Of a stretch of DNA of 20,597 bases, positions 318 through 17,593 are shown in pieces; within the stretch, counting starts at the first letter, position 1, and the number at the start of each line of letters is the position of its first letter. The notes beneath the pieces are model-generated. The model saw only the letters and a program-made list of their open reading frames with translations, was not told the origin of the DNA and ran no database searches. Source of the stretch: a virus (Duplodnaviria; Heunggongvirae; Uroviricota; Caudoviricetes); the IMG/VR virus record IMGVR_UViG_2534681697_000013. One strand, given 5' to 3'. The position numbers were made by a program, and so were the translations under genes.

Positions 318-3298
<2,981 letters not shown>

Positions 3299-3374
3299 AA
3301 CCCTTGCTGCGTCTGGAATGTCGTTTTCCATGCTTTTGATGACCGTTCATCACCCTTCCAGTTTTTCGCGGTTT

Positions 3375-3428
3375 TGTGTATTGCAATGTGTATTGCAAAT
3401 TGGCGATCGGGATGGGTGTGTATTGCAA
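3375..3428 (+). repeat. Three direct copies of TGTGTATTGCAA (3375..3386, 3387..3398, 3417..3428); candidate integrase arm-type sites
   Basis: Exact 12-mers between the left junction and the int start; two more copies sit just inside the right junction. Confidence 0.55.
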
Positions 3429-3446
3429 ATCTCTTGAGGGCTTTTA

Positions 3447-4688
3447 ATGGCTATTGAAAACAAACTCAGTGACAAACTGTTAAAGAGTCTTGTCGGAAAA
3501 CGGCAGGACAAACAAAAAACAATAGCGGATGGGCGCGGGTTGTCTGTGCGTGTAAGCATGGTTGGGGGGATCAGCTTTGTTTTTTACTATCGTCTTGGTG
3601 GCAGGGAATCCCCTCCGGTATGGCTTACACTTGGTCGCTATCCTGACATGTCTCTTGCAACGGCCAGGCGCATGCGTGATCAGTGCCGTGAATGGCTGGC
3701 TGAAAATCTGGACCCCCGCAGGCAAATAAAACTTGCTGCCGAAAAAACTATGCAACCAGTGACCGTAAGGGATGCGCTGTTTTACTGGTACGACAATCAC
3801 GCCACAACAGCCAGAAAAGAGCATGAATATTTAATAAAACGATTTGAAAAGCATATCTTCCCCTATATCGGTGATATGGCTATAGAACAGTGCAAATTAC
3901 ACACATGGCTTACCGTCTTTGACAGGATCAAAAAAAATGCGCCTGTTATGTCTGGTGCAATTTTTCTTGATATCAAACAGGCGTTGCGTTTTTGTCGCGT
4001 CAGGCAATACATCGCGTGCGATCCCTTTGGAGATATTAACGTAAGTTATGTCGGGCGCTCATCCGGTATAAGGGATCGCGTTCTTAATATCAATGAAACC
4101 GCTGATGTATGGTCTTATGCTTACGGTAATAATTTGCTAACTCTGTCATCAATATATAACCGAAGAATAATGGTTATCTGCTTGGTGTTTGGTTGCCGAC
4201 AGCAGGAGGCGAGGCTATCCACCTGGGACGAATGGGATTTAAAAAACTGGGTATGGACAGTCCCAAAAGAGCACAGCAAAAACAAGGAGGCTATAGTAAG
4301 GCCTGTTCCTGACGGAATAAAACAATGGATCGTTAATCTTTACGCAGAAACAAAAAATCGCGGTTATGTTGTCGGTTGTGCTTTGCAAAGGGCGACAATA
4401 ACAGGGGCTGCAAACAGAATATGCAGGCGTCTTGGTCATGATACTAATGGCTTGTGGTGCATACATGATTTCAGGCGCACATTTTCCACTACGCTTAATG
4501 ATATGGGGGCGGATCCTTATATTGTCGAACTTCTTTTAGGTCATAAAGTGAAAGGGGTTGCTGGTGTTTACAATAAAAGCAGGCATATAAAGAAAAAACT
4601 TGAGGTGCTTAATATGTGGGTTAATTACCTTAATACGATAGCAGGATTTAACAACAACGTTATCGAGCTTAATAAAGAGGTGGTGTGA
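3447..4688 (+). CDS. int: Tyrosine recombinase / integrase (P4-type), 413 aa
   Basis: ORF with upstream GAGGG; C-terminal HDFRRTF...LLGHK...GVAGVYNKS is the tyrosine recombinase catalytic region. AT-richer than the flanking lambda genes. Confidence 0.92.
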   Translation: MAIENKLSDKLLKSLVGKRQDKQKTIADGRGLSVRVSMVGGISFVFYYRLGGRESPPVWLTLGRYPDMSLATARRMRDQCREWLAENLDPRRQIKLAAEKTMQPVTVRDALFYWYDNHATTARKEHEYLIKRFEKHIFPYIGDMAIEQCKLHTWLTVFDRIKKNAPVMSGAIFLDIKQALRFCRVRQYIACDPFGDINVSYVGRSSGIRDRVLNINETADVWSYAYGNNLLTLSSIYNRRIMVICLVFGCRQQEARLSTWDEWDLKNWVWTVPKEHSKNKEAIVRPVPDGIKQWIVNLYAETKNRGYVVGCALQRATITGAANRICRRLGHDTNGLWCIHDFRRTFSTTLNDMGADPYIVELLLGHKVKGVAGVYNKSRHIKKKLEVLNMWVNYLNTIAGFNNNVIELNKEVV

Positions 4689-4689
4689 T

Positions 4690-4947
4690 ATGGCAATTTA
4701 TTCTCTTGTTGATGAAAACGATTTGCGCACAATGAAGGACATTGATCGGTTCATTCGTGAAAAAGAGTGCATAGCACTTACCACGCTGGCAAACTCAACA
4801 CGCTGGAAAATGGAGCAGGCAGGTAAATTCCCGCGACGTATCAAGATCGGTGAACGTGCTGCAGGGTATCGACTTTCAGAGGTTCAGGCATGGATCCGTG
4901 GTGAGTGGCATCCTGGATGGAAACCTGGAAAAACAAAACAGCAATAA
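4690..4947 (+). CDS. alpA: AlpA-family wHTH regulator / excisionase-like protein, 85 aa
   Basis: Starts 2 nt after int stop; motif IALTTLANSTRWKMEQAGKFPRRIKIGERAAGYRLSEVQAWI matches the AlpA family. Confidence 0.8.
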   Translation: MAIYSLVDENDLRTMKDIDRFIREKECIALTTLANSTRWKMEQAGKFPRRIKIGERAAGYRLSEVQAWIRGEWHPGWKPGKTKQQ

Positions 4948-4960
4948 CCAGTAAATAATG

Positions 4961-4983
4961 CCCCTCATCACGAGGGGTTTTTT
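4961..4983 (+). terminator. Intrinsic terminator after alpA
   Basis: Stem CCCCTC / GAGGGG with loop ATCAC, followed by TTTTTT. Confidence 0.7.
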
Positions 4984-5003
4984 GTCTATAAGGTAAAAAC
5001 GCG

Positions 5004-5582
5004 ATGAATAAAAATATTGCCGTGACGGGCAAGGGGTACGCTCGTCCAGTGAAAAAATTCTGCGATATTCGTGATCTCGTCGTTCTGCGCTTTGATAGTG
5101 TGAACGTTCGTGTGGTGTATCTGAACGGCGATCCGTGGTTTGTTGCAAAAGATGTTTGTGCTGCGCTGGAACTAACCAATTCGCGTACGGCGTTGCAGAT
5201 GCTTGATGATGATGAAAAGGGAGTAAATTTAACTTACACCCCAGGAGGAAATCAGAATATGAGAATTATCTCTGAGTCAGGTTTCTACAAACTAATAGCC
5301 CGCAGCCGCAAAGCAACGACGCCTGGCACATTTGCTCATCGTTTCAGTAACTGGGTATTCAGAAATGTGATACCAGGTATCAGAAAAACGGGGACTTATG
5401 GTATCCCGTGGGGTGCATTACAGGATTTTTCCCGCCGTAAAGAGCAATATCAAATAAGTGCCAGCGAGAAGGGGAGGGAGCTACAGGCATGTAAGCGCAA
5501 AAAGCGTGAGCTGGAGGAAGAAGAAAAAACGCTGATACGTGAATATCAGCCTGAGTTTTACTTTGGTAACCGCATTCAGTGA
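5004..5582 (+). CDS. Bro-N domain protein (antirepressor-like), 192 aa
   Basis: N-terminus VVYLNGDPWFVAKDVCAALELTNSRTALQMLDDDEKG...GGNQNMRIISESGFYKLIARSRKA matches the Bro-N family; C-terminus is a charged coiled-coil-like tail. Confidence 0.78.
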   Translation: MNKNIAVTGKGYARPVKKFCDIRDLVVLRFDSVNVRVVYLNGDPWFVAKDVCAALELTNSRTALQMLDDDEKGVNLTYTPGGNQNMRIISESGFYKLIARSRKATTPGTFAHRFSNWVFRNVIPGIRKTGTYGIPWGALQDFSRRKEQYQISASEKGRELQACKRKKRELEEEEKTLIREYQPEFYFGNRIQ

Positions 5583-5591
5583 CAAAACAAA

Positions 5592-5612
5592 GGCGACCGC
5601 AAAAGGGTCGCC
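5592..5612. terminator. Hairpin between convergent genes (possible bidirectional terminator)
   Basis: Stem GGCGACC / GGTCGCC, loop GCAAAAG. T-rich tract only on the minus-strand side; none on the plus side. Confidence 0.5.
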
Positions 5613-5678
5613 AGTGGGAACAAGGGAAAACAAAAGCATCACCAACAATGCCACATTTGCGGCTGGTGGGCAATGTGA

Positions 5679-5858
5679 TCAGTCAGATTTGGTTCGTTCC
5701 AAGGTTTGCAACGAGAGCTTTTTCCTGTGCTCTTTAAGGAATTTCTCAAGAGCAAACGAACAAGGTGCGAATCTTTCTGATTCATGTTCATGCGCTATAT
5801 TTTTGCGTCGTCTCTTACGAGTTGGTGATGGTGTTTTGGTTGATTCTGTGTCGCTCAT
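5679..5858 (-). CDS. Small basic hypothetical protein, 59 aa (below the ORF-track size cutoff)
   Basis: Minus ATG at 5858 to TGA at 5679 encodes MSDTESTKTPSPTRKRRRKNIAHEHESERFAPCSFALEKFLKEHRKKLSLQTLERTKSD; weak AGGA upstream; directly downstream of the 101-aa minus ORF. Confidence 0.3.
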   Translation of the reverse strand: MSDTESTKTPSPTRKRRRKNIAHEHESERFAPCSFALEKFLKEHRKKLSLQTLERTKSD

Positions 5859-5915
5859 GGTGCTGTCCTGTAAAGCAATGCGCCTGCGTTCCTCAAACTA
5901 TGGCGCTGATATTGG

Positions 5916-6221
5916 CTATTCATGCTCTTTGACCTTGCGTCGCTGGAGTTCTTCACGCGCGACGGTGACGAGTTGCCCGATCTCCTCGGCTGCTTTGATG
6001 CCGATTTGTTCGACCTTAGCCAGGGCATCCAGTGACGACACAAGGGGATTTTCTCCGCTGCCTTCTGCTTGGCGGCGGGCTATTTCTCCGCGCATGGCGG
6101 TTACGATAAATCCGGCATTGCTTTCACCGTCCAGCTTAACGGATTCCATCCCTTGCATAACATCTAGTGGGACTCTGACAGTTGTCAGTTGTGATTTTGC
6201 GTTTTTGTTAGCCGTTGCCAT
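5916..6221 (-). CDS. Hypothetical protein, 101 aa; possible ribbon-helix-helix-type regulator
   Basis: AGGAG 8 nt upstream of ATG; N-terminal QLTTVRVPLDVMQGMESVK resembles a beta-strand plus helix start. Transcribed divergently from the operator region. Function is inferred. Confidence 0.5.
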   Translation of the reverse strand: MATANKNAKSQLTTVRVPLDVMQGMESVKLDGESNAGFIVTAMRGEIARRQAEGSGENPLVSSLDALAKVEQIGIKAAEEIGQLVTVAREELQRRKVKEHE

Positions 6222-6242
6222 TTCTGAAACTCCTAATCATCG

Positions 6243-6320
6243 GTGTGTTTCAGTATACACAAAAAAAGAAATACAAAAAGCCTTGACGTGTGTTTCATGC
6301 GCTCATAACATGAAACACAC
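6243..6320. promoter_or_regulatory. Divergent promoter region with operator-like repeats (candidate genetic switch)
   Basis: Plus strand: TTGACG (6283..6288), 17 bp, TAACAT (6306..6311). Perfect 12-bp inverted repeat GTGTGTTTCATG (6288..6299) / CATGAAACACAC (6309..6320), plus a third half-site GTGTGTTTCA at 6243..6252 over a minus-strand TATACT -10 candidate (6252..6257). Confidence 0.5.
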
Positions 6321-6348
6321 CGAAAGGATTGTTGAAATACAAAGAGCA

Positions 6349-6382
6349 ACGCCCCGCAGTGCTGGGAACACATACGGGGCGT
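6349..6382 (+). other. Stem-loop in the 5' leader of the rightward operon
   Basis: 8-bp stem ACGCCCCG / CGGGGCGT with an 18-nt loop, no T tract after it; lies between the promoter and the first ORF. Confidence 0.35.
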
Positions 6383-6411
6383 CTAACCAACAACGTAAAC
6401 TAGGAGCCGTT

Positions 6412-6609
6412 ATGGTTGCTGTAAATCATATACCACACCTTGTACACACACAAACGGCCTTTGTGTGGCGTTTTCTGGCACTGAGTGCCGGAGAATCTCA
6501 AATCATCCACGTAACCGCCTGGACGGAACGCGAAGCGCGTAGCCGTTGCCCGTCCGGTTGTGTTGCTGTATTCGCTGCAAAAATCCGCCAGGGAGTGAGT
6601 CATGCTTAA
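6412..6609 (+). CDS. Hypothetical small protein, 65 aa
   Basis: AGGAG 5 nt upstream of ATG 6412; stop overlaps the next ORF start at 6602. It is the C-terminal frame of the otherwise implausible track ORF 5539..6609. Confidence 0.4.
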   Translation: MVAVNHIPHLVHTQTAFVWRFLALSAGESQIIHVTAWTEREARSRCPSGCVAVFAAKIRQGVSHA

Positions 6610-6787
6610 AACCTTCCGTGTATTTGCCCGAGCTGTTAACCCAATAGGCCACACAATTGGTATCGCTCAGAATGTGAAGGCTGTTAATGTTCAGACGGCT
6701 ATTGCTGCGGTGAGAAGCGAATCATCAGAATATGGCTTATCACAAGTCATTATTTCAGCAGTGTATGAATTAAAAGAGGTGCATTAA
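6602..6787 (+). CDS. Hypothetical protein, 61 aa
   Basis: GGAGTGAG upstream of ATG; overlapping, translationally coupled operon layout. Confidence 0.45.
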   Translation: MLKTFRVFARAVNPIGHTIGIAQNVKAVNVQTAIAAVRSESSEYGLSQVIISAVYELKEVH

Positions 6788-6978
6788 TGCAGGAAATTAC
6801 ATTACACGAAGCCGCTGAACGTGCGCACCAGACAGAAATTATTTGCCGCCTTCTTGAGGTATACCCGAACAAAATTACAGATGCTGATATATCCGCACTG
6901 GCGAGCCTACTGGCGCGTCTTTCGGGAAGTGTCGCTAGTTTTTTGATTGAGGAAGAAAGTAAGCTGGTGGGGGATTAA
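6787..6978 (+). CDS. Hypothetical protein, 63 aa
   Basis: AGAGGTG upstream of ATG; start overlaps the preceding ORF end. Confidence 0.45.
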   Translation: MQEITLHEAAERAHQTEIICRLLEVYPNKITDADISALASLLARLSGSVASFLIEEESKLVGD

Positions 6979-7200
6979 ATGAATACAGAACGGGAAGTCT
7001 TTTTTAAATTGTTAGCATGTGCAGAAAGTTCATTAACTTTAAATAATTCAGCAAAAGCAATATTAAATATGTGGCTTGATTGCATAAATGACAATGAAGA
7101 TGCAAATATTGCTTATGGCCTGTTGTCACTTATTGATGAATCAGCAGAAAAACTCAATGACGCAATAAATAGTGCCCTGCTATCAAATAAGTCGAGTTAA
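6979..7200 (+). CDS. Hypothetical protein, 73 aa (AT-rich gene)
   Basis: Starts right after the previous stop with GGGGGA upstream; markedly lower GC than its neighbours. Confidence 0.5.
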   Translation: MNTEREVFFKLLACAESSLTLNNSAKAILNMWLDCINDNEDANIAYGLLSLIDESAEKLNDAINSALLSNKSS

Positions 7201-7217
7201 GTCGAGGAATAAATAAT

Positions 7218-7517
7218 ATGGAAATGAAAAATTCTGGCTTTATTGCCAGCGGCCCCGCTCGACCTGAATTTATGAACGGCGATATTTACCGCGATAAATA
7301 CGGCGGCACGGTAACGATTAAAGGCGTGGCAGAACGGCGCATCACTTACCGCCGTGAGGGGTATAGCTATGACTGCGTGATGCCTGTTTATCAGTTCCGG
7401 CGTGATTTTTCCCTGGTATATGCCGCACCCCGCAGTAAGCCCATCAGCAGGGAAAAAGCGTGGGGAAATATCCAGAAAATGAAAACCATGATTAACGGAT
7501 TCAGAGGTAAAAAATGA
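7218..7517 (+). CDS. Hypothetical protein, 99 aa
   Basis: GAGGAA upstream of ATG; stop overlaps the primase start. Confidence 0.55.
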   Translation: MEMKNSGFIASGPARPEFMNGDIYRDKYGGTVTIKGVAERRITYRREGYSYDCVMPVYQFRRDFSLVYAAPRSKPISREKAWGNIQKMKTMINGFRGKK

Positions 7518-9268
7518 AACTGGCACCGAACGTAAAACAGCAGTCACGCGGCATAAAACACAAAGGAACAGAAGTAATTATTTTTGCGGGTAGTGATGCC
7601 TGGGCACACGCGAAACAATGGCAGGAACATGATGCGCGTATGGCCGGAGATAATGAGCCTCCTGTGTGGCTTGGGGAGCAGCAGCTATCCGAACTGGATA
7701 ATCTGCAAATTGTGCCGGAAGGCCGAAAATCAGCACGCATATACAGGGCCGGATATCTTGCGCCTGTAATGATAAAGGCGATTGGTCAGAAGCTGGCGGC
7801 AGCAGGCGTACAGGATGCAAATTTTTATCCTGAGGGTATGCACGGCCAGGAGGTGCAGAACTGGCGCGAATATCTGGCCCGTGAACGCCAGAATCTTTCT
7901 GATGGTCTGGTCATTGAGCTTCCGGTAAAGCAAAAGGCGCAACTTTCGCAGATGGCGGACAGTGAGCGCGCGCAGTTGCTTGCCGATCGCTTTGATGGCG
8001 TTTGCGTACATCCTGAAAGTGAAATCGTTCACGTATGGCGCGGCGGGGTATGGTGTCCGGTCAGCACAATGGAACTTAGCCGCGAAATGGTGGCGATCTA
8101 TTCAGAGCACAGGGCCACTTTCAGCAAGCGCGTAATCAATAACGCCGTGGAAGCGTTAAAAGTTATTGCCGAACCAATGGGCGAGCCGTCTGGCGATTTG
8201 CTGCCGTTCGCCAATGGTGCGCTTGACCTGAAAACGGGGGAATTTTCCCCGCACACGCCGGAGAACTGGATCACCACGCACAACGGCATTGAGTACACGC
8301 CACCAGCACCAGGGGAGAACATCCGCGATAACGCGCCAAACTTTCATAAATGGCTTGAGCACGCAGCCGGAAAAGACCCGCGCAAGATGATGCGTATATG
8401 TGCCGCGCTGTACATGATTATGGCGAACCGGTACGACTGGCAGATGTTTATTGAGGCCACCGGAGACGGCGGGAGCGGTAAAAGTACATTCACACACATA
8501 GCCAGCCTTCTGGCAGGGAAACAGAACACGGTAAGCGCTGAAATGACATCGCTTGATGATGCTGGTGGACGTGCGCAGGTTGTCGGGAGTCGTCTTATCG
8601 TCCTGGCTGACCAGCCGAAATATACAGGCGAAGGAACGGGCATCAAGAAAATCACAGGCGGCGACCCCGTGGAAATTAACCCGAAATATGAAAAGCGTTT
8701 CACGGCGGTAATCAGGGCGGTGGTGCTGGCGACCAACAACAACCCGATGATATTCACCGAACGGGCCGGAGGTGTGGCACGTCGTCGCGTGATTTTCCGT
8801 TTCGACAATATCGTCAGTGAGGCCGAAAAAGACAGGGAGCTACCGGAAAAGATTGCGGCTGAAATCCCCGTTATTATCCGCCGATTGCTGGCGAACTTTA
8901 CCGACCCTGAGAAGGCACGGGCTTTACTACTGGAACAGCGTGACGGTGATGAAGCACTGGCAATAAAGCAACAGACGGATCCGGTTATTGAGTTTTGCCA
9001 GTTCCTGAATTTTCTGGAGGAAGCGCGCGGCCTGATGATGGGTGGCGGTGGTGATTCAGTGAAGTACACGACCAGGAACAGCCTTTACCGCGTCTATCTG
9101 GCGTTTATGGCATACGCGGGCAGGAGCAAACCGCTAAACGTGGCTGAGTTCAGCAAGGCCATGAAGCCAGCGGCGAAAGTTTACGGGCATGAATATATTA
9201 CGCGAAAAGTTAAGGGAGTAACGCAGACCAACGCAATTACAACAGACGATTGCGACGCGTTTTTATAA
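7514..9268 (+). CDS. Primase-helicase (P4 alpha-type), 584 aa
   Basis: Walker A GDGGSGKST and downstream helicase-like region; last gene of the small-ORF operon and followed directly by iterons. Confidence 0.88.
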   Translation: MKLAPNVKQQSRGIKHKGTEVIIFAGSDAWAHAKQWQEHDARMAGDNEPPVWLGEQQLSELDNLQIVPEGRKSARIYRAGYLAPVMIKAIGQKLAAAGVQDANFYPEGMHGQEVQNWREYLARERQNLSDGLVIELPVKQKAQLSQMADSERAQLLADRFDGVCVHPESEIVHVWRGGVWCPVSTMELSREMVAIYSEHRATFSKRVINNAVEALKVIAEPMGEPSGDLLPFANGALDLKTGEFSPHTPENWITTHNGIEYTPPAPGENIRDNAPNFHKWLEHAAGKDPRKMMRICAALYMIMANRYDWQMFIEATGDGGSGKSTFTHIASLLAGKQNTVSAEMTSLDDAGGRAQVVGSRLIVLADQPKYTGEGTGIKKITGGDPVEINPKYEKRFTAVIRAVVLATNNNPMIFTERAGGVARRRVIFRFDNIVSEAEKDRELPEKIAAEIPVIIRRLLANFTDPEKARALLLEQRDGDEALAIKQQTDPVIEFCQFLNFLEEARGLMMGGGGDSVKYTTRNSLYRVYLAFMAYAGRSKPLNVAEFSKAMKPAAKVYGHEYITRKVKGVTQTNAITTDDCDAFL

Positions 9269-9281
9269 TTTTTTGTAAAAG

Positions 9282-9503
9282 CCATCTACCCCATCTACCT
9301 GAACGAAATAAACGCATATTATTCAACATGATAAGTGGGTATAGGGCTAGGTAGAAGGCTAATAAAAGCTCTCTACCTCTTCTACCTGATTTTATCAGTT
9401 TCAGGTAGCAGGGTAGACGGCAGGTAGAGGAGTCAAAAAAGCTATCTACCCGCTGAAAGCGGCGCCATTACTGACATGATGAGCATTCGGGTAGATGGGT
9501 AGA
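9282..9503. repeat. Iteron cluster with AT-rich core; candidate replication origin
   Basis: (C)CATCTACC-type repeats on the plus strand at 9284, 9293, 9371, 9381, 9444 and inverted GGTAGA copies at 9350, 9404, 9412, 9423, 9490, 9498; terminal blocks CCATCTACCCCATCTACC and GGGTAGATGGGTAGAGG mirror each other; AT-rich stretch around 9300..9345. Confidence 0.6.
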
Positions 9504-9553
9504 GGGGGGGAGGCACAACTAAAAACTTTTTAAACGAGGGGGGGTGAAAATAA

Positions 9554-9868
9554 ATGCGCATACATAAAAATCACTTAACAAACATGCCAGCCGAAAACAT
9601 GAATCAGGGGCGACAAATGACCAAAATTCGCAGAGACAGAACACAGGCAAAATATAAAGCGTTAGACATGACAGAGCTTTCCTTAAAGGTGGCAATCAAA
9701 GCGATAGACCACCACACACGGGCAGGATACGCGAAGGAACATCCCGACCTGATAAGCGCATTCATGACCACAGCAGCGGCAAACTTTGCCACGCTGACAG
9801 AACGGGAGATTGCCGAAGCGGAACAGGTGACAACCATCAATGTTAAAACCGGAGAGCAGACAGCATGA
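9554..9868 (+). CDS. Hypothetical protein, 104 aa (true start may be a downstream Met)
   Basis: ORF after a G-rich Shine-Dalgarno-like tract; stop overlaps the SSB-like gene start (ATGA). Confidence 0.5.
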   Translation: MRIHKNHLTNMPAENMNQGRQMTKIRRDRTQAKYKALDMTELSLKVAIKAIDHHTRAGYAKEHPDLISAFMTTAAANFATLTEREIAEAEQVTTINVKTGEQTA

Positions 9869-10287
9869 CAGCACAGATAGCGGCTTACGGGCGGCTGGTG
9901 GCTGACCCGCAGTTAAAGACCACCAGCAAAGGGACACAAATGGCGATGGCGAGTATGGCGGTTCCCCTGCCGTGCAGCCAGGCAGATGACGGAACGGCGA
10001 CGATGTGGTTATCCGTCCTGGCGTTTGGCAGACAGGCCGACGCACTGGCAAAACACCACAAAGGCGAACTGGTGAGCGTGGCGGGTAACATGCAGGTAAG
10101 CCAGTGGACAGGCCAGAACGGCGAAACGCGGCGGGGCTGGCAGGTTATCGCAGACAGCGTAATCAGTGCGCGAACGGCGCGACCGGGCGGCAAAAAAGGC
10201 CAGCAGGGGCAGGCCACTGACGCACTGAACAGGGCAAAACAACAGTCGGGGAATGATGATCCGTACGGCGATAATATACCGTTTTAA
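9865..10287 (+). CDS. ssb: Single-stranded DNA-binding protein-like, 140 aa
   Basis: OB-fold-like core WLSVLAFGRQADALAKHHKGELVSVAGNMQVSQWTGQNGETRRGWQVIADSV, Gly/Gln-rich linker and a C-terminal ...DDPYGDNIPF tail resembling the SSB DDDIPF tip. Confidence 0.7.
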   Translation: MTAQIAAYGRLVADPQLKTTSKGTQMAMASMAVPLPCSQADDGTATMWLSVLAFGRQADALAKHHKGELVSVAGNMQVSQWTGQNGETRRGWQVIADSVISARTARPGGKKGQQGQATDALNRAKQQSGNDDPYGDNIPF

Positions 10288-10304
10288 ATTCTGCAAACAA
10301 AAAG

Positions 10305-10333
10305 ATGCCGGAAAAAAATAGATTTTCCGGCAT
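10305..10333. terminator. Strong hairpin after the SSB-like gene (putative terminator)
   Basis: Perfect 11-bp stem ATGCCGGAAAA / TTTTCCGGCAT with a 7-nt loop; no clear T tract after it, so terminator function is uncertain. Confidence 0.4.
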
Positions 10334-10498
10334 GCTACATAAATCCCGACCAAAGGAAGTAAATACATTAACACGAATTATCAGCACTGAAGTTGTTACG
10401 GCATATTTTATACAACATTGCACTTGGTTGCATGTGTTCGCATAGCAGACATCGGTAATAGAATATATTCACAATTATTTGTAATGAATGTAAAGAGG

Positions 10499-11545
10499 AT
10501 GAGTATGGTTGATTTATATTCGCCTACACAGCTTGTGCAGGTGGCTAATGCTGAAGATGTGCAAAAAAATTAAATGCGTTGTTTACCAGTTTGTTTTTCA
10601 CTCGCTCGGTAATGTTTGAATCGAGAGACATTATTCTTGATACGATCGACGATCCAAATATCCCGATCGCGGCGTTTTGCTCTCCTATGGTGGGCAGTAA
10701 AGTTTCACGAGATGAGGGATACGAATCAAAAACAATTCGTCCAGGTTATATGAAGCCGAAAAGCAGCATTGATCCAAATAAGTTAGCTGTGCAGCCCTGC
10801 TGGTGTGTCACCTGAGCAATACAATGCTTTTGGGGCGCGTAATATTAAAGTTAAACAGGCGATTGTAAATCAGGCTAAAGCTATTCGTGCACGTATTGAA
10901 TGGCTTGCTGTTCAGGCAATCACAACGGGGAAAAATATCATTGAGGGCGATGGTATTGAACGTTATGAGCTGGACTGGAATATAAAACCACAAAATATCA
11001 TCACTCAGTCTGGCGGTACTGAGTGGTCAGGTAAGGATAAAGAAACTTTTGATCCAAATGATGATATTGAGAGCTACGCAGAATTTAGTGAGGGCGTCAC
11101 TAATATCATCATTATGGGTGGTAATGTATGGAAGAAATACCGTTCATTCAGAGCGATAAAAGAGGCTTTGGATACCCGTCGTGGTTCTAATTCCGAACTG
11201 GAAACGGCCCTTAAAGACCTTGGTGATTCGGTGAGTTTTAAAGGGTATATGGGCGATGTTGCGATTGTTGTTTACAGCGGGCGTTATACCGACGAGGACG
11301 GAACAGAAAAACATTTCCTTGATCCTGATTTGATGGTGCTTGGCAATACGGCTCTTCAGGGGATTGTCGCCTATGGCGGTATTCAGGATCCGGAGCTAAT
11401 CCGAATGGGGCTGACTAAAGCCGAACTTGCACCGAAAAACTATATTGTGCCTGGTGATCCGGCTATTGAATATGTGCAGACACATTCAGCACCACAGCCA
11501 ATACCGGCCCGCATCAATCGTTTTGTTACCGTTCGCATTGGCTAA
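10499..11545 (+). pseudogene. Major capsid protein gene (lambda gpE-like), disrupted by two frameshifts
   Basis: Three consecutive frames each align with successive parts of gpE. First: MSMVDLYSPTQLVQVANAEDVQKN*, stopping at 10571. Second, to 10815: KKLNALFTSLFFTRSV...PGYMKPKSSIDPNKLAVQP. Third, 10805..11545: ...ITQSGGTEWSGKDKETFDPNDDIESY...DTRRGSNSELETALKDLG...GDVAIVVYSG.... The breaks sit in an A7 run (10563..10569) and a CCC run (10795..10797). Confidence 0.75.
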
Positions 11546-11554
11546 GGGGGAGCA

Positions 11555-11896
11555 ATGGCTACTCATTACACTGAACTCATGGCTGGCACTGAAGCACTGG
11601 TGACTACGCTGGGGATATTTTCAGCTAATAAAGGGGTAATTCCTGCATTTACGCCACTGATGCAGGAAGATGCAACAGGTGCACTGGTGGTATGGGATGG
11701 TTCGAGCGTAGGTAAAGCGGTTTATGTTTCCGCTGTACAAATCGACACCGCGAAAAAAACACAGGCTCAGGTCTATAAGACAGGTGTCTTAAATGTTGAT
11801 GCTCTGAACTGGCCTGAGTCTGTTAAAGAACTGTCAGTAAAGGTTGCAGCGTTTGTTGGCTCAGGTATTTCTGTTCAGCCGCTGGCTCGTGTGTAA
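11555..11896 (+). CDS. Head decoration protein (lambda gpD-like), 113 aa, apparently intact
   Basis: AAGGGGGA upstream of ATG. LVVWDGSSVGKAVYVSAV, VYKTGVLNVDALNWPE and AAFVGSGISV parallel the gpD motifs [34 protein letters not shown] and [10 protein letters not shown]. Confidence 0.72.
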   Translation: MATHYTELMAGTEALVTTLGIFSANKGVIPAFTPLMQEDATGALVVWDGSSVGKAVYVSAVQIDTAKKTQAQVYKTGVLNVDALNWPESVKELSVKVAAFVGSGISVQPLARV

Positions 11897-11907
11897 AGGG
11901 GGATACA

Positions 11908-12291
11908 ATGCAGAATGATTACAATGACCTTAAGCCAATTGCCGAAATGATGTACCCGAATCCAGCTGTAGAGGAATTAAAAGCTATCGCTGACAAAATG
12001 TGTTTAAGCGAGCGCCTTGTTGATATGAATCAGGTGATGGAAATTACAACCCTGAGTCGTCGTACACTGCTAAACCTTGAGGCTAGTGGAGAGTTCCCGG
12101 AGCGTGTGCAGGTTACGGAAGGGCGTAAGGCCTGGTATTTAAGTGAAGTGATCGACTGGATAAATAATATTCCTCGCGCTTCTGAATATTGCCGCGTACC
12201 TGTCCCAAAAAAGCCAGATGCGGCGCTATGCCTCAAGATTGAGCGTGTACGCCGCAATGCACGGGATGGTCGCTATAAGCTGATTGGTTGA
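11908..12291 (+). CDS. AlpA/MerR-type wHTH DNA-binding protein, 127 aa
   Basis: AGGGGGA upstream of ATG; motif MNQVMEITTLSRRTLLNLEASGEFPERVQVTEGRKAWYLSEVIDWI matches the AlpA family. Sits between the decoration gene and cos. Confidence 0.6.
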   Translation: MQNDYNDLKPIAEMMYPNPAVEELKAIADKMCLSERLVDMNQVMEITTLSRRTLLNLEASGEFPERVQVTEGRKAWYLSEVIDWINNIPRASEYCRVPVPKKPDAALCLKIERVRRNARDGRYKLIG

Positions 12292-12343
12292 TGAAATTAG
12301 GGCCCGCTCTGGCTGGCGGGTCCTTTCCGGTGATCCGGTAGGC

Positions 12344-12381
12344 TACGGGGCGGCGACCTCGCGGGTTTTCGCTATTTATGA
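12344..12381. other. cos site: lambda-type cosN (cohesive-end 12-mer GGGCGGCGACCT at 12348..12359)
   Basis: TACGGGGCGGCGACCTCGCGGGTTTTCGCTATTTATGA matches the lambda cosN region; downstream sequence up to the small terminase gene differs from lambda cosB. Confidence 0.75.
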
Positions 12382-12492
12382 GCCTTTTTCGGGTGCTGGT
12401 GGTGGTTTTGTTGTTCGCTCTATCTCTATGAATAAAAAGGAAAAGATAAAGCCAATACACCAACCTGAAACATTACTTAAGTGGGGATATTG

Positions 12493-13035
12493 ATGAAATC
12501 GCACCTGATGAACAAAAAAAACATGGCGCAAAGCTGCCGTGTAAGTGCGACAGCGTTCGACAAGTGGGGAGTGACTCCCGTTGAACGTAAAGGCCGCGAG
12601 GCGTTTTATGATGTTGCCAGCGTAATAGACAATCGGGTTAGCAATGCAATTAACCAGATTACAGACGACAAAGGCGAGATTGATGATGATGAACTCCTAC
12701 GAGTCAGGATCAGATTGCTGACAGCACAGGCAGAGGCGCAGGAGCTTAAAAACGAGCGCGAACGCGGCGACGTTATTGATACAGCGTTTTGTATATACGT
12801 GCTTTCAAAATTGGCGAGTCAGATTTCTTCAATCATGGACAGCCTGCCGCTTGCCATGACAAGGAAGTTTCCCGACATGAAGCCGTCTATGCTGGATGGA
12901 CTGAAAAAAGAAGTTATCAGAGCCTGTAACGCATGCGCAAAACTTGACGAAAACATACCGCTGATGCTGTCCGATTATCTGATGGAAACTGCCGGAAACG
13001 TACCGGATAAGTTGCAGCCGAATAAAGATAAGTAA
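12493..13035 (+). CDS. Terminase small subunit homologue (Nu1-like), about 180 aa; start could instead be 12481 (GTG) or 12508 (ATG)
   Basis: LLTAQAEAQELKNERERGDVIDTAFCIYVLSKLASQISSIMDSLPLAMTRKFPDMKPSMLDGLKKEVIRACNACAKLDENIPLMLSDYL parallels the Nu1 C-terminal half in this window; N-terminus MNKKNMAQ... parallels Nu1 MEVNKKQLA...; immediately downstream of cos. Confidence 0.8.
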   Translation: MKSHLMNKKNMAQSCRVSATAFDKWGVTPVERKGREAFYDVASVIDNRVSNAINQITDDKGEIDDDELLRVRIRLLTAQAEAQELKNERERGDVIDTAFCIYVLSKLASQISSIMDSLPLAMTRKFPDMKPSMLDGLKKEVIRACNACAKLDENIPLMLSDYLMETAGNVPDKLQPNKDK

Positions 13036-13046
13036 CGTAGTACGCT

Positions 13047-13328
13047 ATGACTGAATCCGAAATACTGCGATTAATCCGCCGTGCTTGTGGAATCAGCAAG
13101 CAGCATGACGAACAGGCCACGCAGCCGGACAGCGTGACCGCAGATAATTATGTGCGTGTAGTGGCTGAGGTGATGCGCCGTGACGGTATTGAGCTTAACG
13201 GCGTGGATATGCGCAACATACGAACAAGAGTCCTTGAGTTGCTGGCATATCGTCGCCGTTCTCAACAACGGAGGGAGAGCGCGAAAAATACTTACCAGTG
13301 GAAGAAGCCGGAACGATTGCGGCGGTAA
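13047..13328 (+). CDS. Hypothetical protein, 93 aa
   Basis: ORF 12 nt after the small terminase stop; no strong Shine-Dalgarno; function unknown. Confidence 0.45.
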   Translation: MTESEILRLIRRACGISKQHDEQATQPDSVTADNYVRVVAEVMRRDGIELNGVDMRNIRTRVLELLAYRRRSQQRRESAKNTYQWKKPERLRR

Positions 13329-13579
13329 CTTGCTGATATTCCCGATAACGCAAAATTGCGCTGGCTGACTTGTTGCATTGCAAAAAGTTAAGCAGGAAGG
13401 CACGGCCTGTAAGATGGGATGCAGTAAGTAGTTCAAGGCTACCTTGTGCTGGCACGCACAGTTAAGCCGTCGGTGCTGGATATCCCCCACTGGGGGAAAA
13501 GCTGGCTACATCCCTCACATCTGAGGACTGATAACGCGACATTGCGCTGGCTGGCAAAGTGCAAAATTGCACGATGGCC

Positions 13580-13726
13580 TAACCCATTGATTATTTCGAA
13601 AACCTGCAATGCAGGAAATCGGGGAAGTAAGCCTAAGCTATTGATTGTTTCGAAAACCCCCATTGGGGGATGTCGGGAAAGTAAGACTAACCCATTGATT
13701 CTTCCACAATCCTCAATTTGAGGAGG
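13580..13726. repeat. Tandem direct repeats of about 54 bp (2.5 copies), each with a short inverted repeat
   Basis: Units begin TAACCCATTGATTATTTCGAAAACC, TAAGCTATTGATTGTTTCGAAAACC and TAACCCATTGATTCTTCC; each contains a small palindrome (CTGCAATGCAG, CCCCCATTGGGGG, CCTCAATTTGAGG) and ends GG(G)AAGTAAG(C/A)C. Confidence 0.55.
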
Positions 13727-14041
13727 CCGGAACGTCTACATAGCTGCATCGCCGTAATGATGATTCAGCCCACCAGCCAAATCAGCACAGCAACGACAGA
13801 ATAGCCCGACACAGAAAAACCACGAATATGGGGTTTTTGTTATGACATGGTCATGATGACCACTCATACAAAACAGGTAAAGCCCACCAGCCTGATTAAA
13901 GGTTAACCGGAAAAAAGCCAGGTATCCAATCTCGATATGGGGATCCCTATATCGACATTAACGCCCACTAAAACTGTGCATATATGCATAGAAAAAGCAT
14001 CCACCAGCTTTATGACGGATGCCGCTCATCTTATAAATAAT

Positions 14042-14065
14042 CGTGTATTGCAGTGTGTATTGCGA
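14042..14065 (+). repeat. Two direct copies of (C/T)GTGTATTGC(A/G) (14042..14052, 14054..14065); candidate arm-type sites at the right end
   Basis: Same motif and orientation as the three copies upstream of int. Confidence 0.5.
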
Positions 14066-14137
14066 CTCCTTTAAACGATAGGTCTGAGCATTCGTAATGT
14101 ACTGTTTTTAAATTTTATTTTTTCCTGTCTTTTCATA

Positions 14138-14145
14138 AAGGCGAT
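14138..14145. other. Right junction core (attR-like) AAGGCGAT
   Basis: Direct repeat of 3239..3246; portal-like sequence resumes in frame immediately after. Confidence 0.6.
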
Positions 14146-14917
14146 GTATGCCGCCACCATTGAGAGTGAGCTGGATACGCAGTCAGCGATGGATTTTATT
14201 CTGGGCGCGAACAGTAAGGAGCAGCGGGACAAGCTGACCGGCTGGATTGGTGAAATTGCCGCGTATTACGCCGCAGCACCGGTCCGTCTGGGAGGCGCAA
14301 AAGTGCCGCACCTGATGCCGGGGGACTCACTGAACCTGCAGACGGCTCAGGACACGGATAACGGCTACTCCGTGTTTGAGCAGTCACTGTTGCGGTATAT
14401 CGCTGCCGGGCTGGGTGTCTCGTATGAGCAGCTTTCCCGGAATTACGCCCAGATGAGCTACTCCACGGCACGGGCCAGTGCGAACGAGTCGTGGGCGTAC
14501 TTTATGGGGCGGCGAAAATTCGTCGCATCCCGTCAGGCGAGCCAGATGTTTCTGTGCTGGCTGGAAGAGGCCATCGTTCGCCGCGTGGTGACGTTACCTT
14601 CAAAAGCGCGTTTCAGCTTTCAGGAAGCCCGCAGCGCCTGGGGGAACTGTGACTGGATAGGCTCCGGTCGTATGGCCATCGATGGTCTGAAAGAAGTACA
14701 GGAAGCGGTGATGCTGATAGAAGCCGGACTGAGTACCTACGAGAAAGAGTGCGCAAAACGCGGTGACGACTATCAGGAAATTTTTGCCCAGCAGGTCCGT
14801 GAAACGATGGAGCGCCGTGCAGCCGGTCTTAAACCGCCCGCCTGGGCGGCTGCGGCATTTGAATCCGGACTGCGACAATCAACAGAGGAGGAGAAGAGTG
14901 ACAGCAGAGCTGCGTAA
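14138..14917 (+). pseudogene. B: Portal protein gpB, C-terminal part (portal reading frame resumes at 14146)
   Basis: Translation (KA)MYAATIESELDTQSAMDFILGANSKEQRDKLTGWIGEIAAYY...GLRQSTEEEKSDSRAA* is the portal C-terminus; the last 20 nt overlap the GTG start of C. Confidence 0.9.
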
Positions 14918-16217
14918 TCTCCCGCATATTGCCAGCATGGCTTTTAATGAGCCGCTGATGCTTGAACCCGCCTATGCGCGGGTTTTCTTTTGTGCGCTTG
15001 CAGGCCAGCTTGGGATCAGCCGCCTGACGGATGCGGTGTCCGGTGACAGCCTGACTGCCGGAGAGGCACCCGCGACGCTGGCGTTATCCGTTAATGATGA
15101 CGGACCACGACAGGCCCGCAGTTATCAGGTCATGAACGGCATCGCCGTGCTGCCGGTTTCCGGCACGCTGGTCAGCCGGACGCGGGCGCTGCAGCCGTAT
15201 TCGGGGATGACCGGTTACAACGGCATTATCGCCCGTCTGCAACAGGCTGCCAGCGACCCGATGGTGGACGGCATTCTGCTGGATATGGACACGCCCGGCG
15301 GAATGGTGGCAGGGGCATTTGACTGCGCTGACATCATCGCCCGTGTGCGTGACATAAAGCCGGTATGGGCGCTGGCCAATGACATGAACTGCAGCGCAGG
15401 TCAGCTGCTTGCCAGTGCCGCCTCCCGGCGTCTGGTCACGCAGACCGCCCGGACAGGCTCCATCGGCGTCATGATGGCTCACAGTAATTACGGTGCTGCG
15501 CTGGAGAAACAGGGCGTGGAAATCACGCTGATTTACAGCGGCAGCCATAAGGTGGATGGCAACCCCTACAGCCATCTACCGGATGATGTCCGGGAAACAC
15601 TGCAGTCCCGGATGGATGCAACCCGCCGGATGTTTGCACAGAAGGTGTCGGCATATACCGGCCTGTCCGTGCAGGCTGTGCTGGATACCGAGGCTGCAGT
15701 GTACAGCGGTCAGGAGGCCATTGATGCCGGACTGGCTGATGAACTTGTTAACAGTACCGATGCGATCACCGTCATGCGTGATGCACTGGATGCACGTAAA
15801 TCCCGTCTCTCAGGAGGGCGAATGACCAAAGAGACTCAATCAACAACTGTTTCAGCCACTGCTTCGCAGGCTGACGTTACTGGCGTGGTGCAAGCGACGG
15901 AGGGCGAGAACGCCAGCGCTGCGCAGCCGGACGTGAACGCGCAGATCACCGCAGCGGTTGCGGCAGAAAACAGTCGCATTATGGGGATCCTCAACTGTGA
16001 GGAGGCTCACGGACGCGAAGAACAGGCACGCGTGCTGGCCGAAACCCCTGGTATGACCGTGGAAACGGCCCGCCGCATTCTGGCAGCTGCACCACAGAGT
16101 GCACAGGCGCGCAGTGACACTGCGCTGGATCGTCTGATGCAGGGGGCACCGGCACCGCTGGCTGCAGGTAACCCGGCATCTGATGCCGTTAACGATTTGC
16201 TGAACACACCAGTGTAA
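14898..16217 (+). CDS. C: Head protease / scaffold protein (lambda gpC-like), 439 aa, GTG start
   Basis: VTAELRNLPHIASMAFNEPLMLEPAYARVFF...NDLLNTPV*. The track ORF 14763..16217 extends upstream only because of an in-frame upstream start. Confidence 0.94.
   Translation: MTAELRNLPHIASMAFNEPLMLEPAYARVFFCALAGQLGISRLTDAVSGDSLTAGEAPATLALSVNDDGPRQARSYQVMNGIAVLPVSGTLVSRTRALQPYSGMTGYNGIIARLQQAASDPMVDGILLDMDTPGGMVAGAFDCADIIARVRDIKPVWALANDMNCSAGQLLASAASRRLVTQTARTGSIGVMMAHSNYGAALEKQGVEITLIYSGSHKVDGNPYSHLPDDVRETLQSRMDATRRMFAQKVSAYTGLSVQAVLDTEAAVYSGQEAIDAGLADELVNSTDAITVMRDALDARKSRLSGGRMTKETQSTTVSATASQADVTGVVQATEGENASAAQPDVNAQITAAVAAENSRIMGILNCEEAHGREEQARVLAETPGMTVETARRILAAAPQSAQARSDTALDRLMQGAPAPLAAGNPASDAVNDLLNTPV
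15612..16217 (+). CDS. nu3: Scaffold protein gpNu3 (in-frame internal start within C), 201 aa
   Basis: ATG at 15612 in the C frame gives a 606-nt ORF, the nested arrangement known from lambda; no independent sequence evidence beyond position. Confidence 0.7.
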   Translation: MDATRRMFAQKVSAYTGLSVQAVLDTEAAVYSGQEAIDAGLADELVNSTDAITVMRDALDARKSRLSGGRMTKETQSTTVSATASQADVTGVVQATEGENASAAQPDVNAQITAAVAAENSRIMGILNCEEAHGREEQARVLAETPGMTVETARRILAAAPQSAQARSDTALDRLMQGAPAPLAAGNPASDAVNDLLNTPV

Positions 16218-16226
16218 GGGATGTTT

Positions 16227-16471
16227 ATGACGAGCAAAGAAACCTTTACCCATTACCAGCCGCTGGGCAACAGTGACCCGGCTCATACCGCAACCGCGCC
16301 CGGCGGATTGAGTGCGAAAGCGCCTGCAATGACCCCGCTGATGCCGGACACCTCCACCCGTTCTACAAGTCCGGCACGTTCCGTTATGAGGATGTGCTCT
16401 GGCCGGAGGCTGCCAGCGATGAGACGAAAAAACGGACCGCGTTTGCCGGAACGGCAATCAGCATCCTTTAA
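16227..16471 (+). pseudogene. D: Head decoration protein gpD, frameshifted by an internal deletion
   Basis: N-terminal frame reads [43 protein letters not shown] then nonsense; the C-terminal segment [36 protein letters not shown] is in a different frame, from 16361. The locus is about 88 nt shorter than a 333-nt D gene. Confidence 0.75.
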
Positions 16472-16492
16472 CCTTACCCTTCATCACTAAAG

Positions 16493-16513
16493 GCCGCCTG
16501 TGCGGCTTTTTTT
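16493..16513 (+). terminator. Intrinsic terminator-like hairpin between D and E
   Basis: Stem GCCGC / GCGGC with loop CTGT, followed by TTTTTTT. Confidence 0.55.
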
Positions 16514-16526
16514 ACGGGATTTTTTT

Positions 16527-17552
16527 ATGTCGATGTACACAACCGCCCAGCTGCTGGCGGCAAATGAGCAGAAATTTAAGTTTGATCCGCTGTTTCTGCG
16601 TCTCTTTTTCCGTGAGAGCTATCCCTTCACCACGGAGAAAGTCTATCTCTCACAAATTCCGGGACTGGTAAACATGGCGCTGTACGTTTCGCCGATTGTT
16701 TCCGGTGAGGTTATCCGTTCCCGTGGCGGATCCACCTCTGAATTTACACCGGGATATGTCAAGCCCAAGCATGAGGTGAATCCGCAGATGACCCTGCGTC
16801 GCCTGCCGGATGAAGATCCGCAGAATCTGGCGGACCCGGCTTACCGCCGCCGTCGCATCATCCTGCAGAACATGCGAGACGAAGAGCTGGCCATTGCTCA
16901 GGTCGAAGAGATGCAGGCCGTTTCTGCCGTGCTCAAGGGCAAATACACCATGACCGGTGAAGCCTTCGATCCGGTTGAGGTGGATATGGGCCGCAGTGCG
17001 GCGAACAACATCACGCAGTCCGGCGGCACGGAGTGGAGCAAGCGTGACAAGTCCACGTATGACCCGACCGACGATATCGAAGCCTACGCGCTGAACGCCA
17101 GCGGCGTGGTGAATATCATCGTGTTTGACCCGAAAGGCTGGGCGCTGTTCCGTTCCTTCAAAGCCGTCAGGGAGAAGCTGGATACCCGTCGCGGCTCTCA
17201 TTCCGAACTGGAGACAGCGGTAAAAGACCTGGGCAAAGCGGTGTCTTATAAGGGAATGTATGGCGATGTGGCCATCGTCGTGTATTCCGGACAGTACGTG
17301 GAAAACGGCGTCAAAAAGAACTTCCTGCCGGACAACACGATGGTGCTGGGTAACACTCATGCACGCGGTCTGCGCTCCTATGGCTGTATTCAGGATGCGG
17401 ATGCATTGAGTGAGGGTATTAATGCGTCTCCCCGTTATCCGAAAAACTGGAAGACATCCGGCGATCCGGCGCGAGAGTTCACCATGATTCAGTCAGCACC
17501 GCTGATGCTGCTGGCTGATCCTGATGAGTTCGTGGCCGTTCAACTGGCGTAA
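16527..17552 (+). CDS. E: Major capsid protein (lambda gpE-like), 341 aa
   Basis: MSMYTTAQLLAANEQKFKFDPLFLRLFFRESYPFTTEKVYLSQIPGLVNMALYVSPIVSG...DPDEFVAVQLA*; the track ORF starts at an upstream in-frame codon. Confidence 0.96.
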   Translation: MSMYTTAQLLAANEQKFKFDPLFLRLFFRESYPFTTEKVYLSQIPGLVNMALYVSPIVSGEVIRSRGGSTSEFTPGYVKPKHEVNPQMTLRRLPDEDPQNLADPAYRRRRIILQNMRDEELAIAQVEEMQAVSAVLKGKYTMTGEAFDPVEVDMGRSAANNITQSGGTEWSKRDKSTYDPTDDIEAYALNASGVVNIIVFDPKGWALFRSFKAVREKLDTRRGSHSELETAVKDLGKAVSYKGMYGDVAIVVYSGQYVENGVKKNFLPDNTMVLGNTHARGLRSYGCIQDADALSEGINASPRYPKNWKTSGDPAREFTMIQSAPLMLLADPDEFVAVQLA

Positions 17553-17554
17553 TC

Positions 17555-17578
17555 ATGGCCCTTCGGGGCCATTTTCTC
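17555..17578 (+). terminator. Hairpin with T-rich tail after E
   Basis: Stem ATGGCCC / GGGCCAT with loop TTCG, followed by TTTCTCTCT. Confidence 0.5.
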
Positions 17579-17593
17579 TCTGTGGAGGAGTCC

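Follow-up and report, generated by a model that had tools for sequence, protein, structure and literature searches.

Chi octamers in a helper-embedded phage satellite and in related chromosomal islands of Escherichia coli

Why should a small phage satellite carry many copies of Chi, the octamer GCTGGTGG recognised by the host enzyme RecBCD, when the phage that surrounds it carries none? This question is raised by the virus record IMGVR_UViG_2534681697_000013 of IMG/VR, a stretch of 20,597 nt that is referred to below as the window. It contains two parts of a lambdoid prophage, separated within the portal gene B by an insert of about 10.9 kb (3252-14151), and an IS66-family insertion sequence (IS). 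Judged by its sequence, the insert is a satellite of the helper-embedded type of phage-inducible chromosomal islands (PICIs), or HE-PICI. The layout was derived from Megablast comparisons with E. coli genomes and phages and from the annotation of near-identical copies. An earlier reading of the sequence alone had described Chi as frequent in this element and clustered near its right end, and had proposed that the element may rely on Chi-dependent attenuation of RecBCD rather than on a Gam-like inhibitor.

Chi in the satellite and in its helper

Exact matches to GCTGGTGG were sought on both strands of the whole window. Ten Chi octamers were found, five per strand, and all of them are located within the satellite (5662-14008; Table 1). 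The eight positions listed by the sequence-only reading were all correct, and two sites, at 8300 on the minus strand and at 8561 on the plus strand, had been missed, so that Chi is even more frequent than had been noted. From composition, only 0.5-0.7 sites would be expected. Dinucleotide shuffling of the window yielded 0.69 +/- 0.80 Chi, and none of 100 shuffles reached ten, while the expectation for the satellite was 0.51 with a second-order Markov model and 0.36 with dinucleotides, resulting in an observed/expected ratio of about 20 under the Markov model. Enrichment over the host background was likewise found: at the density of E. coli K-12, which is 1 per 4.6 kb (figure as quoted in PMC12315714), 2.4 Chi would be expected in 10.9 kb, and the probability of at least ten is 1.8e-4. 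Non-coding DNA, although it accounts for only about 2.4 kb of the element, contains half of the ten sites and is the denser part.

Neither the lambda-like segments of the window nor the IS66-family element contained a Chi. However, the lambda-like segments are short and only 0.6 sites are expected in them; therefore, their lack of Chi, although correctly noticed before, becomes meaningful only over a whole helper of 44.5 kb. For this comparison, a 99% identical composite prophage of strain EcWJ (NZ_CM135127.1) was used. Without its satellite, the 44.5 kb helper prophage contained no Chi, compared with 3.05 expected from composition and 9.7 at host density. The 10.9 kb satellite contained 10 Chi (0.51 expected from composition), and the host flanks of 23.6 kb contained 4. 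The EcWJ helper encodes Gam-Bet-Exo. In contrast, Pfam and PHROGs searches with all annotated open reading frames (ORFs) of the satellite detected no homologue of Gam (PF06064), Abc2 or a recombinase, a search that is limited by about eight small ORFs without known function. Two strategies are, in this way, nested in one prophage: a Chi-free helper with Gam and Red, and a Chi-saturated satellite without an inhibitor.

The reported clustering at the right end was borne out only in part. Three Chi are indeed located within 240 bp, and two of them are included in the exact 12-mer AGCCCACCAGCC, which occurs at 13770 and 13884, as had been seen. However, simulation showed that three of ten random sites fall within 231 bp with P ~0.13; therefore, the cluster is descriptive and not significant alone. 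Its notable aspect is that all three sites are non-coding and on the same strand.

Enrichment across the PICI family

To put the satellite into context, eight E. coli PICIs were compared; they resemble the focal element in some modules only, at 83-96% identity. This panel consisted of the focal HE-PICI, ordinary PICIs integrated at cspD-clpS, roxA-phoQ and allE-allC, and one PICI of the capsid-forming type, which encodes a portal and a large terminase of its own. Each of the eight contains 10-19 Chi (101 in 90.4 kb in total), and in every one of them, including the focal element, Chi is the commonest octamer. The observed/expected ratios under the second-order Markov model ranged from 11 to 34, with a pooled value of 18.8. 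Among another 62 PICI-sized IMG/VR contigs with the same primase, which had a median of 0.86 Chi per kb, Chi ranked first in 51, and the PICI loci of Shigella flexneri and E. albertii contained 13 and 15 Chi. P4-like satellites do not follow this pattern, which extends over the ordinary, the helper-embedded and the capsid-forming type of PICI in E. coli, Shigella and E. albertii. In the search for cross-species relatives, an integrase-based scan of species-representative genomes gave no confirmed match, and a primase-alignment scan gave two loci only. The Chi-type motifs of other hosts are different: GCTGGCGC in Pseudomonas, GNTGGTGG in Haemophilus/Pasteurella, GAAGCGG in S. aureus and GCGCGTG in Lactococcus.

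The individual sites were conserved more often than other sequences of the same length. Where aligned segments were no more than 97% identical, Chi was kept in 218 of 283 comparisons versus 133 expected from other 8-mers, a large effect even though these comparisons were not independent of one another. Within the pair of opposed sites in the SSB gene, the plus-strand site was kept in seven of the eight panel elements and the minus-strand site in five. This pair forms an 8-bp inverted repeat within the first 60 nt of the gene, and as a pair it was kept in five panel elements; at such a density, pairs as close as this one are not statistically unusual. The non-coding DNA in front of attR has a mosaic structure of short conserved blocks that each contain a Chi, and the equivalent stretch holds at least one minus-strand Chi in every panel element. 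The block at 13884 (AAAGCCCACCAGCCTGATTAA) is conserved across PICIs with four different integration sites.

Is the octamer itself under selection? It could be argued that host-like composition, codon usage or the amelioration of a long-resident island produced the sites without any selection, because Chi holds the commonest Leu codon and is over-represented in the E. coli genome as well, with an observed/expected ratio of about 2.3 (PMC3784561). However, Chi is 4-8 times as dense as in the host, and when synonymous codons were shuffled per gene, with protein and codon usage kept, 6.7 +/- 2.3 (maximum 17) coding Chi were obtained for the panel, compared with 48 in reality, and 0.35 +/- 0.57 for the focal element, compared with 5. 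Moreover, the sites are densest in the non-coding DNA of the element, the surrounding prophage and P4-like islands of the same species have no Chi, and the 24 one-mismatch neighbours of Chi occur on average 4.8 times, i.e. about 20 times more rarely than Chi with its 101 occurrences. Codon usage, composition and amelioration are, thus, already refuted by the shuffling, host-density, neighbour and Markov tests, and an origin without selection is hardly credible. An expectation from sub-words (maximal-order Markov) was of no use as a test because 60% of the CTGGTG hexamers in these PICIs belong to Chi. It is also very improbable that the octamer is a binding site for a protein unrelated to RecBCD, e.g. 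terminase at cosB, a replication initiator, an integrase or a regulator, as might be suggested by the 12-mer AGCCCACCAGCC of the two right-end sites, the one Chi in cosB and the Chi-bearing short conserved blocks near attR. The panel Chi are found in 47 distinct sequence contexts without an extended or strong flank consensus, they are scattered over unrelated genes on both strands, and the enrichment is common to elements whose integrases, replication proteins and packaging modules are unrelated. In addition, the relatives do not have a Chi at the cosB position, and both the arm-type sites (GTGTATTGC) and the iterons (GGTGAACA, GCGGGTTA) are other octamers. The three right-end sites in particular were considered as integrase arm-site or iteron repeats, and this was rejected, as the arm repeats are GTGTATTGC and the Chi flanks differ. 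Together, these results show that the Chi enrichment is real, is not due to coding and is conserved across the satellite family, and the octamer itself appears to be selected.

Orientation of Chi and its possible role

It seems reasonably likely, by analogy with characterised replicons, that Chi is a selected, family-wide property of PICIs that turns RecBCD from a nuclease into a promoter of recombination and enables concatemer formation without Gam. RecBCD would enter at an exposed double-strand end of satellite DNA and, with a mean spacing of one Chi per kb on either strand, would soon reach a correctly oriented site. There, it would stop degrading and load RecA, and the end would invade a sister copy. 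As a result, the DNA would survive, and multimers (concatemers), the substrate of a lambda-type terminase, would be formed without Gam or Red. The satellite could then be propagated by helpers with or without RecBCD inhibition and could establish itself in a new cell without Gam. We infer RecBCD as the selective agent and, likewise, the stage of the life cycle at which it acts. The earlier proposal of Chi in place of a Gam-like inhibitor agrees with the absence of Gam, Abc2 and recombinase genes from the satellite and with the Chi-free Gam+ helper; however, the term attenuation is too narrow because what has been documented for Chi in comparable replicons is a role in RecA-dependent recombination and in the formation of concatemers.

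Such a role has precedents. PICIs have been reported to package from concatemers via a lambda-type cos (PMC6092414). Lambdoid phages without a RecBCD inhibitor are Chi-rich and those with an inhibitor are Chi-poor (Bobay 2013, PMC3784561; Zheng 2025, PMC12315714), with a median observed/expected ratio of 2.5 in the inhibitor-less class (PMC3784561). In the Chi-rich Rec-less lambdoids, Chi has been proposed to stimulate recombination that yields concatemers, and the growth of one of them, LLS, is enhanced by RecBCD (PMC12315714). LLS and about 70 Rec-less lambdoids (PMC12315714, PMC3784561) resemble the satellite in that they lack a RecBCD inhibitor and a recombinase, have Chi as their top octamer, far above expectation, and depend on lambda-type cos packaging, which needs concatemers. 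The contrast between LLS-type phages and Gam+/Red+ Chi-free phages is the same as that between satellite and helper. However, the former are phages, whereas here a 10.9 kb satellite is nested in a Gam+ helper that is able to inhibit RecBCD in trans. The densities also differ, with about 0.9-1.8 Chi per kb in PICIs versus about 0.5 per kb in LLS, as do the observed/expected ratios (about 19 versus the median of Bobay's inhibitor-less class).

In P1 and related phages (Subramaniam & Smith, 10.1101/2021.07.08.451572), Chi is likewise the top octamer, is found on both strands in nearly random orientation and is as dense in non-coding as in coding DNA, which we list as a further likeness to the satellite. 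P1 requires RecBCD and RecA (10.1101/2021.07.08.451572), but for the circularisation of terminally redundant headful DNA, and its Chi are concentrated toward the genome ends. The satellite has cohesive ends, no such end-clustering and about twice the P1 density of 1 per 1.9 kb. A third precedent is a rolling-circle plasmid that, as far as it is described where it is cited, builds high-molecular-weight DNA in E. coli only with Chi and RecA (Dabert 1992 as cited in 10.1101/2021.07.08.451572). Like the satellite, it is a small circular replicon without recombination or anti-RecBCD functions of its own, and its Chi-dependent concatemers in recBCD+ recA+ cells, in that description, represent the cis mechanism proposed here. 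It differs in being engineered, with one or few Chi acting in an orientation-dependent manner, whereas the satellite has about ten natural Chi in both orientations, and its concatemers are predicted.

The orientation of the sites was analysed on a map of 10,900 bp that was permuted so that cosN is the origin. Chi is recognised by RecBCD arriving from its 3' side, and in lambda-type phages the free end after the terminase cut is the right end, so that upper-strand Chi are active (PMC12315714). The satellite has the cos-terS orientation of lambda; therefore, its plus-strand Chi are in the "active" orientation. On the permuted map, the plus-strand Chi are located at 47, 4214, 5515, 7113 and 8446 and the minus-strand Chi at 1422, 1536, 1653, 6852 and 8472. 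The sequence-only reading had drawn attention to orientation relative to the cos ends, but no bias was found, in contrast to the roughly 20:3 ratio of Chi-rich lambdoids. In LLS, 20:3 of the sites are in the lambda-active orientation and are clustered at the right cos end; in the satellite, the sites are symmetric and spread over the whole map, without clustering at this end. The orientation pattern of the satellite thus resembles that of P1 more than that of LLS. In all five cos-bearing elements, a correctly oriented Chi is found 0.3-2.5 kb from each cos end. For entry of RecBCD at the cosB (left) end, the minus-strand Chi before attR are the first correctly oriented sites, 1.42-1.65 kb away.

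The Chi next to cosN had been placed about 35 bp from it, and it starts 36 bp past it. As a guard of the DNA end it was considered and rejected: it is a plus-strand site on the cosB/terS side, where the packaged DNA has its left end, and is oriented the wrong way for RecBCD entering there, being recognised only by RecBCD that arrives from the far end. The relatives read GGTGGTGG (G-GTGGTGG) at this position, within the conserved TGGTGGTGG cosB motif. Therefore, the Chi at 12395 is a lineage-specific variant of that motif and not a conserved Chi, and no special role is assigned to it.

Several points weigh against the proposed recombinational role. The orientation is symmetric, with a ratio of 5:5 in the satellite and of 26:21 over independent contexts (p = 0.56), and no polarity, inward-facing or other, was detected along the cos-permuted maps of the five cos-bearing elements, in which the left quarter contains 10 plus and 12 minus Chi and the right quarter 7 plus and 6 minus Chi. 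Therefore, the data do not fit the simple model of RecBCD entry at the free right cos end, which explains LLS. An inhibitor could be hidden among the several small ORFs without assigned function. Because modules are common to panel elements, z-scores overstate their independence. The PICI studies PMC10111431, PMC6092414 and PMC6739421 mention neither RecBCD nor RecA dependence nor Chi. P4 with three P4-like islands (4 elements, 40.5 kb) and P2 (33.6 kb) contain no Chi, but with 0.2-1.9 expected per genome these zeros are compatible with composition and therefore indicate only a lack of enrichment, not avoidance. Finally, both lambda, the characterised helper of E. coli PICIs, and the helper surrounding the satellite make Gam. 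Gam from the helper should silence Chi during induction; therefore, the benefit must come from other contexts, namely Gam-less helpers, which account for about a fifth of the lambdoids (PMC12315714), the recipient or new cell, or an effect on RecBCD in trans.

The latter two contexts lead to further explanations. Chi in both orientations might serve establishment, by limiting RecBCD degradation from either end after injection into a cell without Gam, as well as the supply of fragments to CRISPR adaptation, and by promoting recombination with resident PICIs; RecA-mediated recombination of this kind would then drive module exchange. This would agree with the strand symmetry, with the correctly oriented Chi near both cos ends of all five cos-bearing elements and with the strong mosaicism of the PICI family, in which modules are common at 83-96% identity, and masking of Chi by helper Gam in the donor cell would no longer be a problem. 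In P1-type phages, random Chi orientation has been explained by RecBCD entry at both injected ends (10.1101/2021.07.08.451572). We nevertheless regard establishment as a rather unlikely explanation, because cos DNA circularises by its cohesive ends and needs no recombination, lambda goes through this stage as well although it has no Chi, an inward-facing polarity is missing, and it would be left unexplained why P4-like satellites, likewise naked cos DNA on arrival, lack Chi. It is still more doubtful that a Chi-dense multicopy satellite titrates scarce RecBCD in trans and inactivates it, resulting in a phenocopy of recD and in a protein-free substitute for Gam that avoids inhibitor-sensing defences. 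Effects of Chi on RecBCD in trans have reportedly been described by Kuzminov/Stahl and by Myers et al. A density roughly twice that of P1 or LLS, the observed/expected ratio of about 19, sites on both strands, which suit titration and are unneeded for directional protection, and the existence of defence systems that react to RecBCD inhibitors would be in line with titration. However, the idea is purely inferential, cis protection and recombination are sufficient for the data, and there was no sign of linear satellite ends abundant enough to titrate RecBCD.

The reading of Chi as a recombination signal in cis could be extended to the proposal that about one Chi per kb, the highest value of any replicon examined, is a protein-free way of handling RecBCD, which would provide concatemers in cis and possibly exhaust the enzyme in trans, independently of Gam and without triggering inhibitor-sensing defences. 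We put this forward only tentatively and think it improbable as a whole. If it were true, the absence of Chi from P4-like satellites would reflect a different packaging substrate. The P2/P4 terminase packages monomeric circles and is not known to use concatemers, and the absence of Chi enrichment in P4-like satellites would fit a benefit that is linked to concatemers. P4, with P2 as its helper, otherwise resembles the satellite: it comprises 11.6 kb and has an integrase, an AlpA-type regulator, an Icd-like protein, a D5/alpha-type primase and cos ends, and no Gam or recombinase.

The principle that replicons without an inhibitor are rich in Chi is already known for lambdoids and P1. Full-text literature searches retrieved no paper linking Chi with PICIs or satellites, and the extension to phage satellites is not previously reported in the searchable literature. 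The distinguishing features are the highest Chi density encountered, about twice that of P1 or LLS, the strand symmetry and the nesting in a Chi-free Gam+ helper. If Chi is functional, the spread of PICIs and the transfer of the virulence or defence genes that they carry would depend on the RecBCD-RecA pathway of the host. In enterobacterial genomes, Chi density could also serve as an additional signature by which PICIs are told apart from P4-like islands and from prophage remnants.

Anatomy of the satellite and the surrounding prophage

The frame of the portal gene B is interrupted at 3250/14135, and a 13-bp core, AAGGCGAT(T/G)TATG, bounds the insert at 3239 and 14139. The gene order of the satellite begins with tyrosine int, AlpA, BRO-N, YlcI-like (antisense), Icd-like, three small ORFs and DUF4222. 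Next come the D5/DUF5906 primase, one small ORF, SSB, a capsid protein like lambda E, a decoration protein like D and an AlpA-type helix-turn-helix (HTH) protein, and the right end consists of the latter, cos, a Nu1-family terS, a small ORF and about 0.8 kb of non-coding DNA. The genes int and alpA, the primase gene and the late genes are all on the plus strand. The Pfam matches are, in this order, integrase, AlpA, Bro-N, D5_N/DUF5906, SSB, Phage_cap_E, HDPD and Phage_Nu1. The four ordered zones of HE-PICIs (Int-AlpA; Bro; primase-SSB-DUF5906; late) and a helper-like cos are, thus, all present. These zones, the helper-like cos and the captured late genes (E-like capsid, D-like decoration, Nu1-like TerS) are common to HE-PICIs and Gram-negative cos PICIs (Tommasini 2023, PMC10111431; Fillol-Salom 2018, PMC6092414; 2019, PMC6739421). 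The HE-PICI prototype 11capE differs in lacking terS and in being located in gene E, whereas the satellite interrupts the portal gene B and encodes a Nu1-family TerS of its own.

Table 1. Features of the window, ordered by position
Feature	Position	Strand	Remarks
Helper lambdoid prophage, left part	1-3251	+	end of Nu1, A, W, 5' part of portal B; 0 Chi
attL core	3239-3251	+	AAGGCGATTTATG, read from the sequence
Satellite	3252-14151	+	annotated copies 99.4% and 99.95% identical; Pfam matches; matches to intact lambdoid phages break at its ends
GTGTATTGC(A) repeats	3375-3430, more at 14043-14067	+	repeat search; distinct from Chi-bearing motifs
Chi	5662-5669	+	intergenic, BRO-N / ylcI-like; context common to L004
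Chi	6963-6970	+	within small ORF 6787-6978; context only in the focal element among the panel
Chi	8300-8307	-	antisense strand of primase gene; context common to L006
Chi	8561-8568	+	in primase gene; context common to L006 and L008
Opposed Chi pair	9894-9927	+ and -	GCTGGTGG at 9894 (+), CCACCAGC at 9920 (-); 26 bp apart, 5' part of SSB gene
cosN	12348-12359	+	exact lambda 12-mer GGGCGGCGACCT
Chi	12395-12402	+	satellite-specific cosB DNA, 36 bp right of cosN
Satellite terS (Nu1 family)	12493-13035	+	Pfam PF07471; 37% identical to helper Nu1 (BLASTP)
Three Chi	13770, 13884, 14001 (to 14008)	-	non-coding stretch before attR
attR core	14139-14151	+	AAGGCGATGTATG, read from the sequence
Helper lambdoid prophage, right part	14152-17603	+	3' part of portal B, C/Nu3, D, E; 0 Chi
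IS66-family element (ISSfl3-like)	17604-20357	-	tnpA, tnpB, DDE transposase on minus strand; 0 Chi

The cosQ/cosN region (12316-12381) has 94% identity over 66 bp to the cos of the helper prophage, whereas the cosB side is divergent. The satellite has cosQ/cosN in common with the helper, but a different cosB (region 12360-12492) and its own Nu1-family TerS. This arrangement suggests a redirection of packaging through a TerS-cosB pair specific to the satellite, which would still use the large terminase of the helper, unlike EcCICFT073, in which redirection occurs by the Rpp mechanism. The GTGTATTGC repeats at both ends of the insert are probably arm-type sites of the integrase. The second commonest octamer of the satellite is GCAATACA. 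In L004 and L005, the PICIs at cspD-clpS with a longer primase, the second commonest octamers are GGTGAACA and CTGTTCAC, the type-1 ori/crr iterons of P4 (L012), which points to an origin of the P4-alpha type in these two elements.

Additional repeats were found in the non-coding DNA past the last satellite gene. Three tandem units of 54 nt at 13577-13738 (80% and 61% identical to the first), each with a short hairpin, could be a regulatory RNA or a protein-binding array; an Rfam scan of the window, including the right-end non-coding region, detected no family above threshold. A 24-nt direct repeat, GATAACGC(A/G)A(A/C)ATTGCGCTGGCTG, is located at 13344 and 13530, and a near-perfect palindrome, CGATATGGGGATCCCTATATCG, at 13931-13952, between two Chi; the latter is conserved as GGGGATCCCC in PICIs with different integration sites.

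Compared with two near-identical copies, the window differs by three 1-nt homopolymer indels: one in a G run at 9537, one in an A run at 10562, and one at 10793 that consists of an additional A. Through the latter two, the satellite capsid gene (10505-11545) loses its reading frame over about 230 nt and regains it thereafter; these indels are probably assembly or homopolymer errors and not a sign of a real pseudogene. The IS66-family element is located just past the helper capsid gene E, where other prophage copies have FI-FII-Z. With this insertion after E and the satellite in B, the helper in the genome of the window may therefore be disrupted at two places. The helper of EcWJ (L003 14662-16263) carries a gene of the SIR2 family beside the repressor region; it also has iss and a porin gene. 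These genes are possible defence or virulence cargo.

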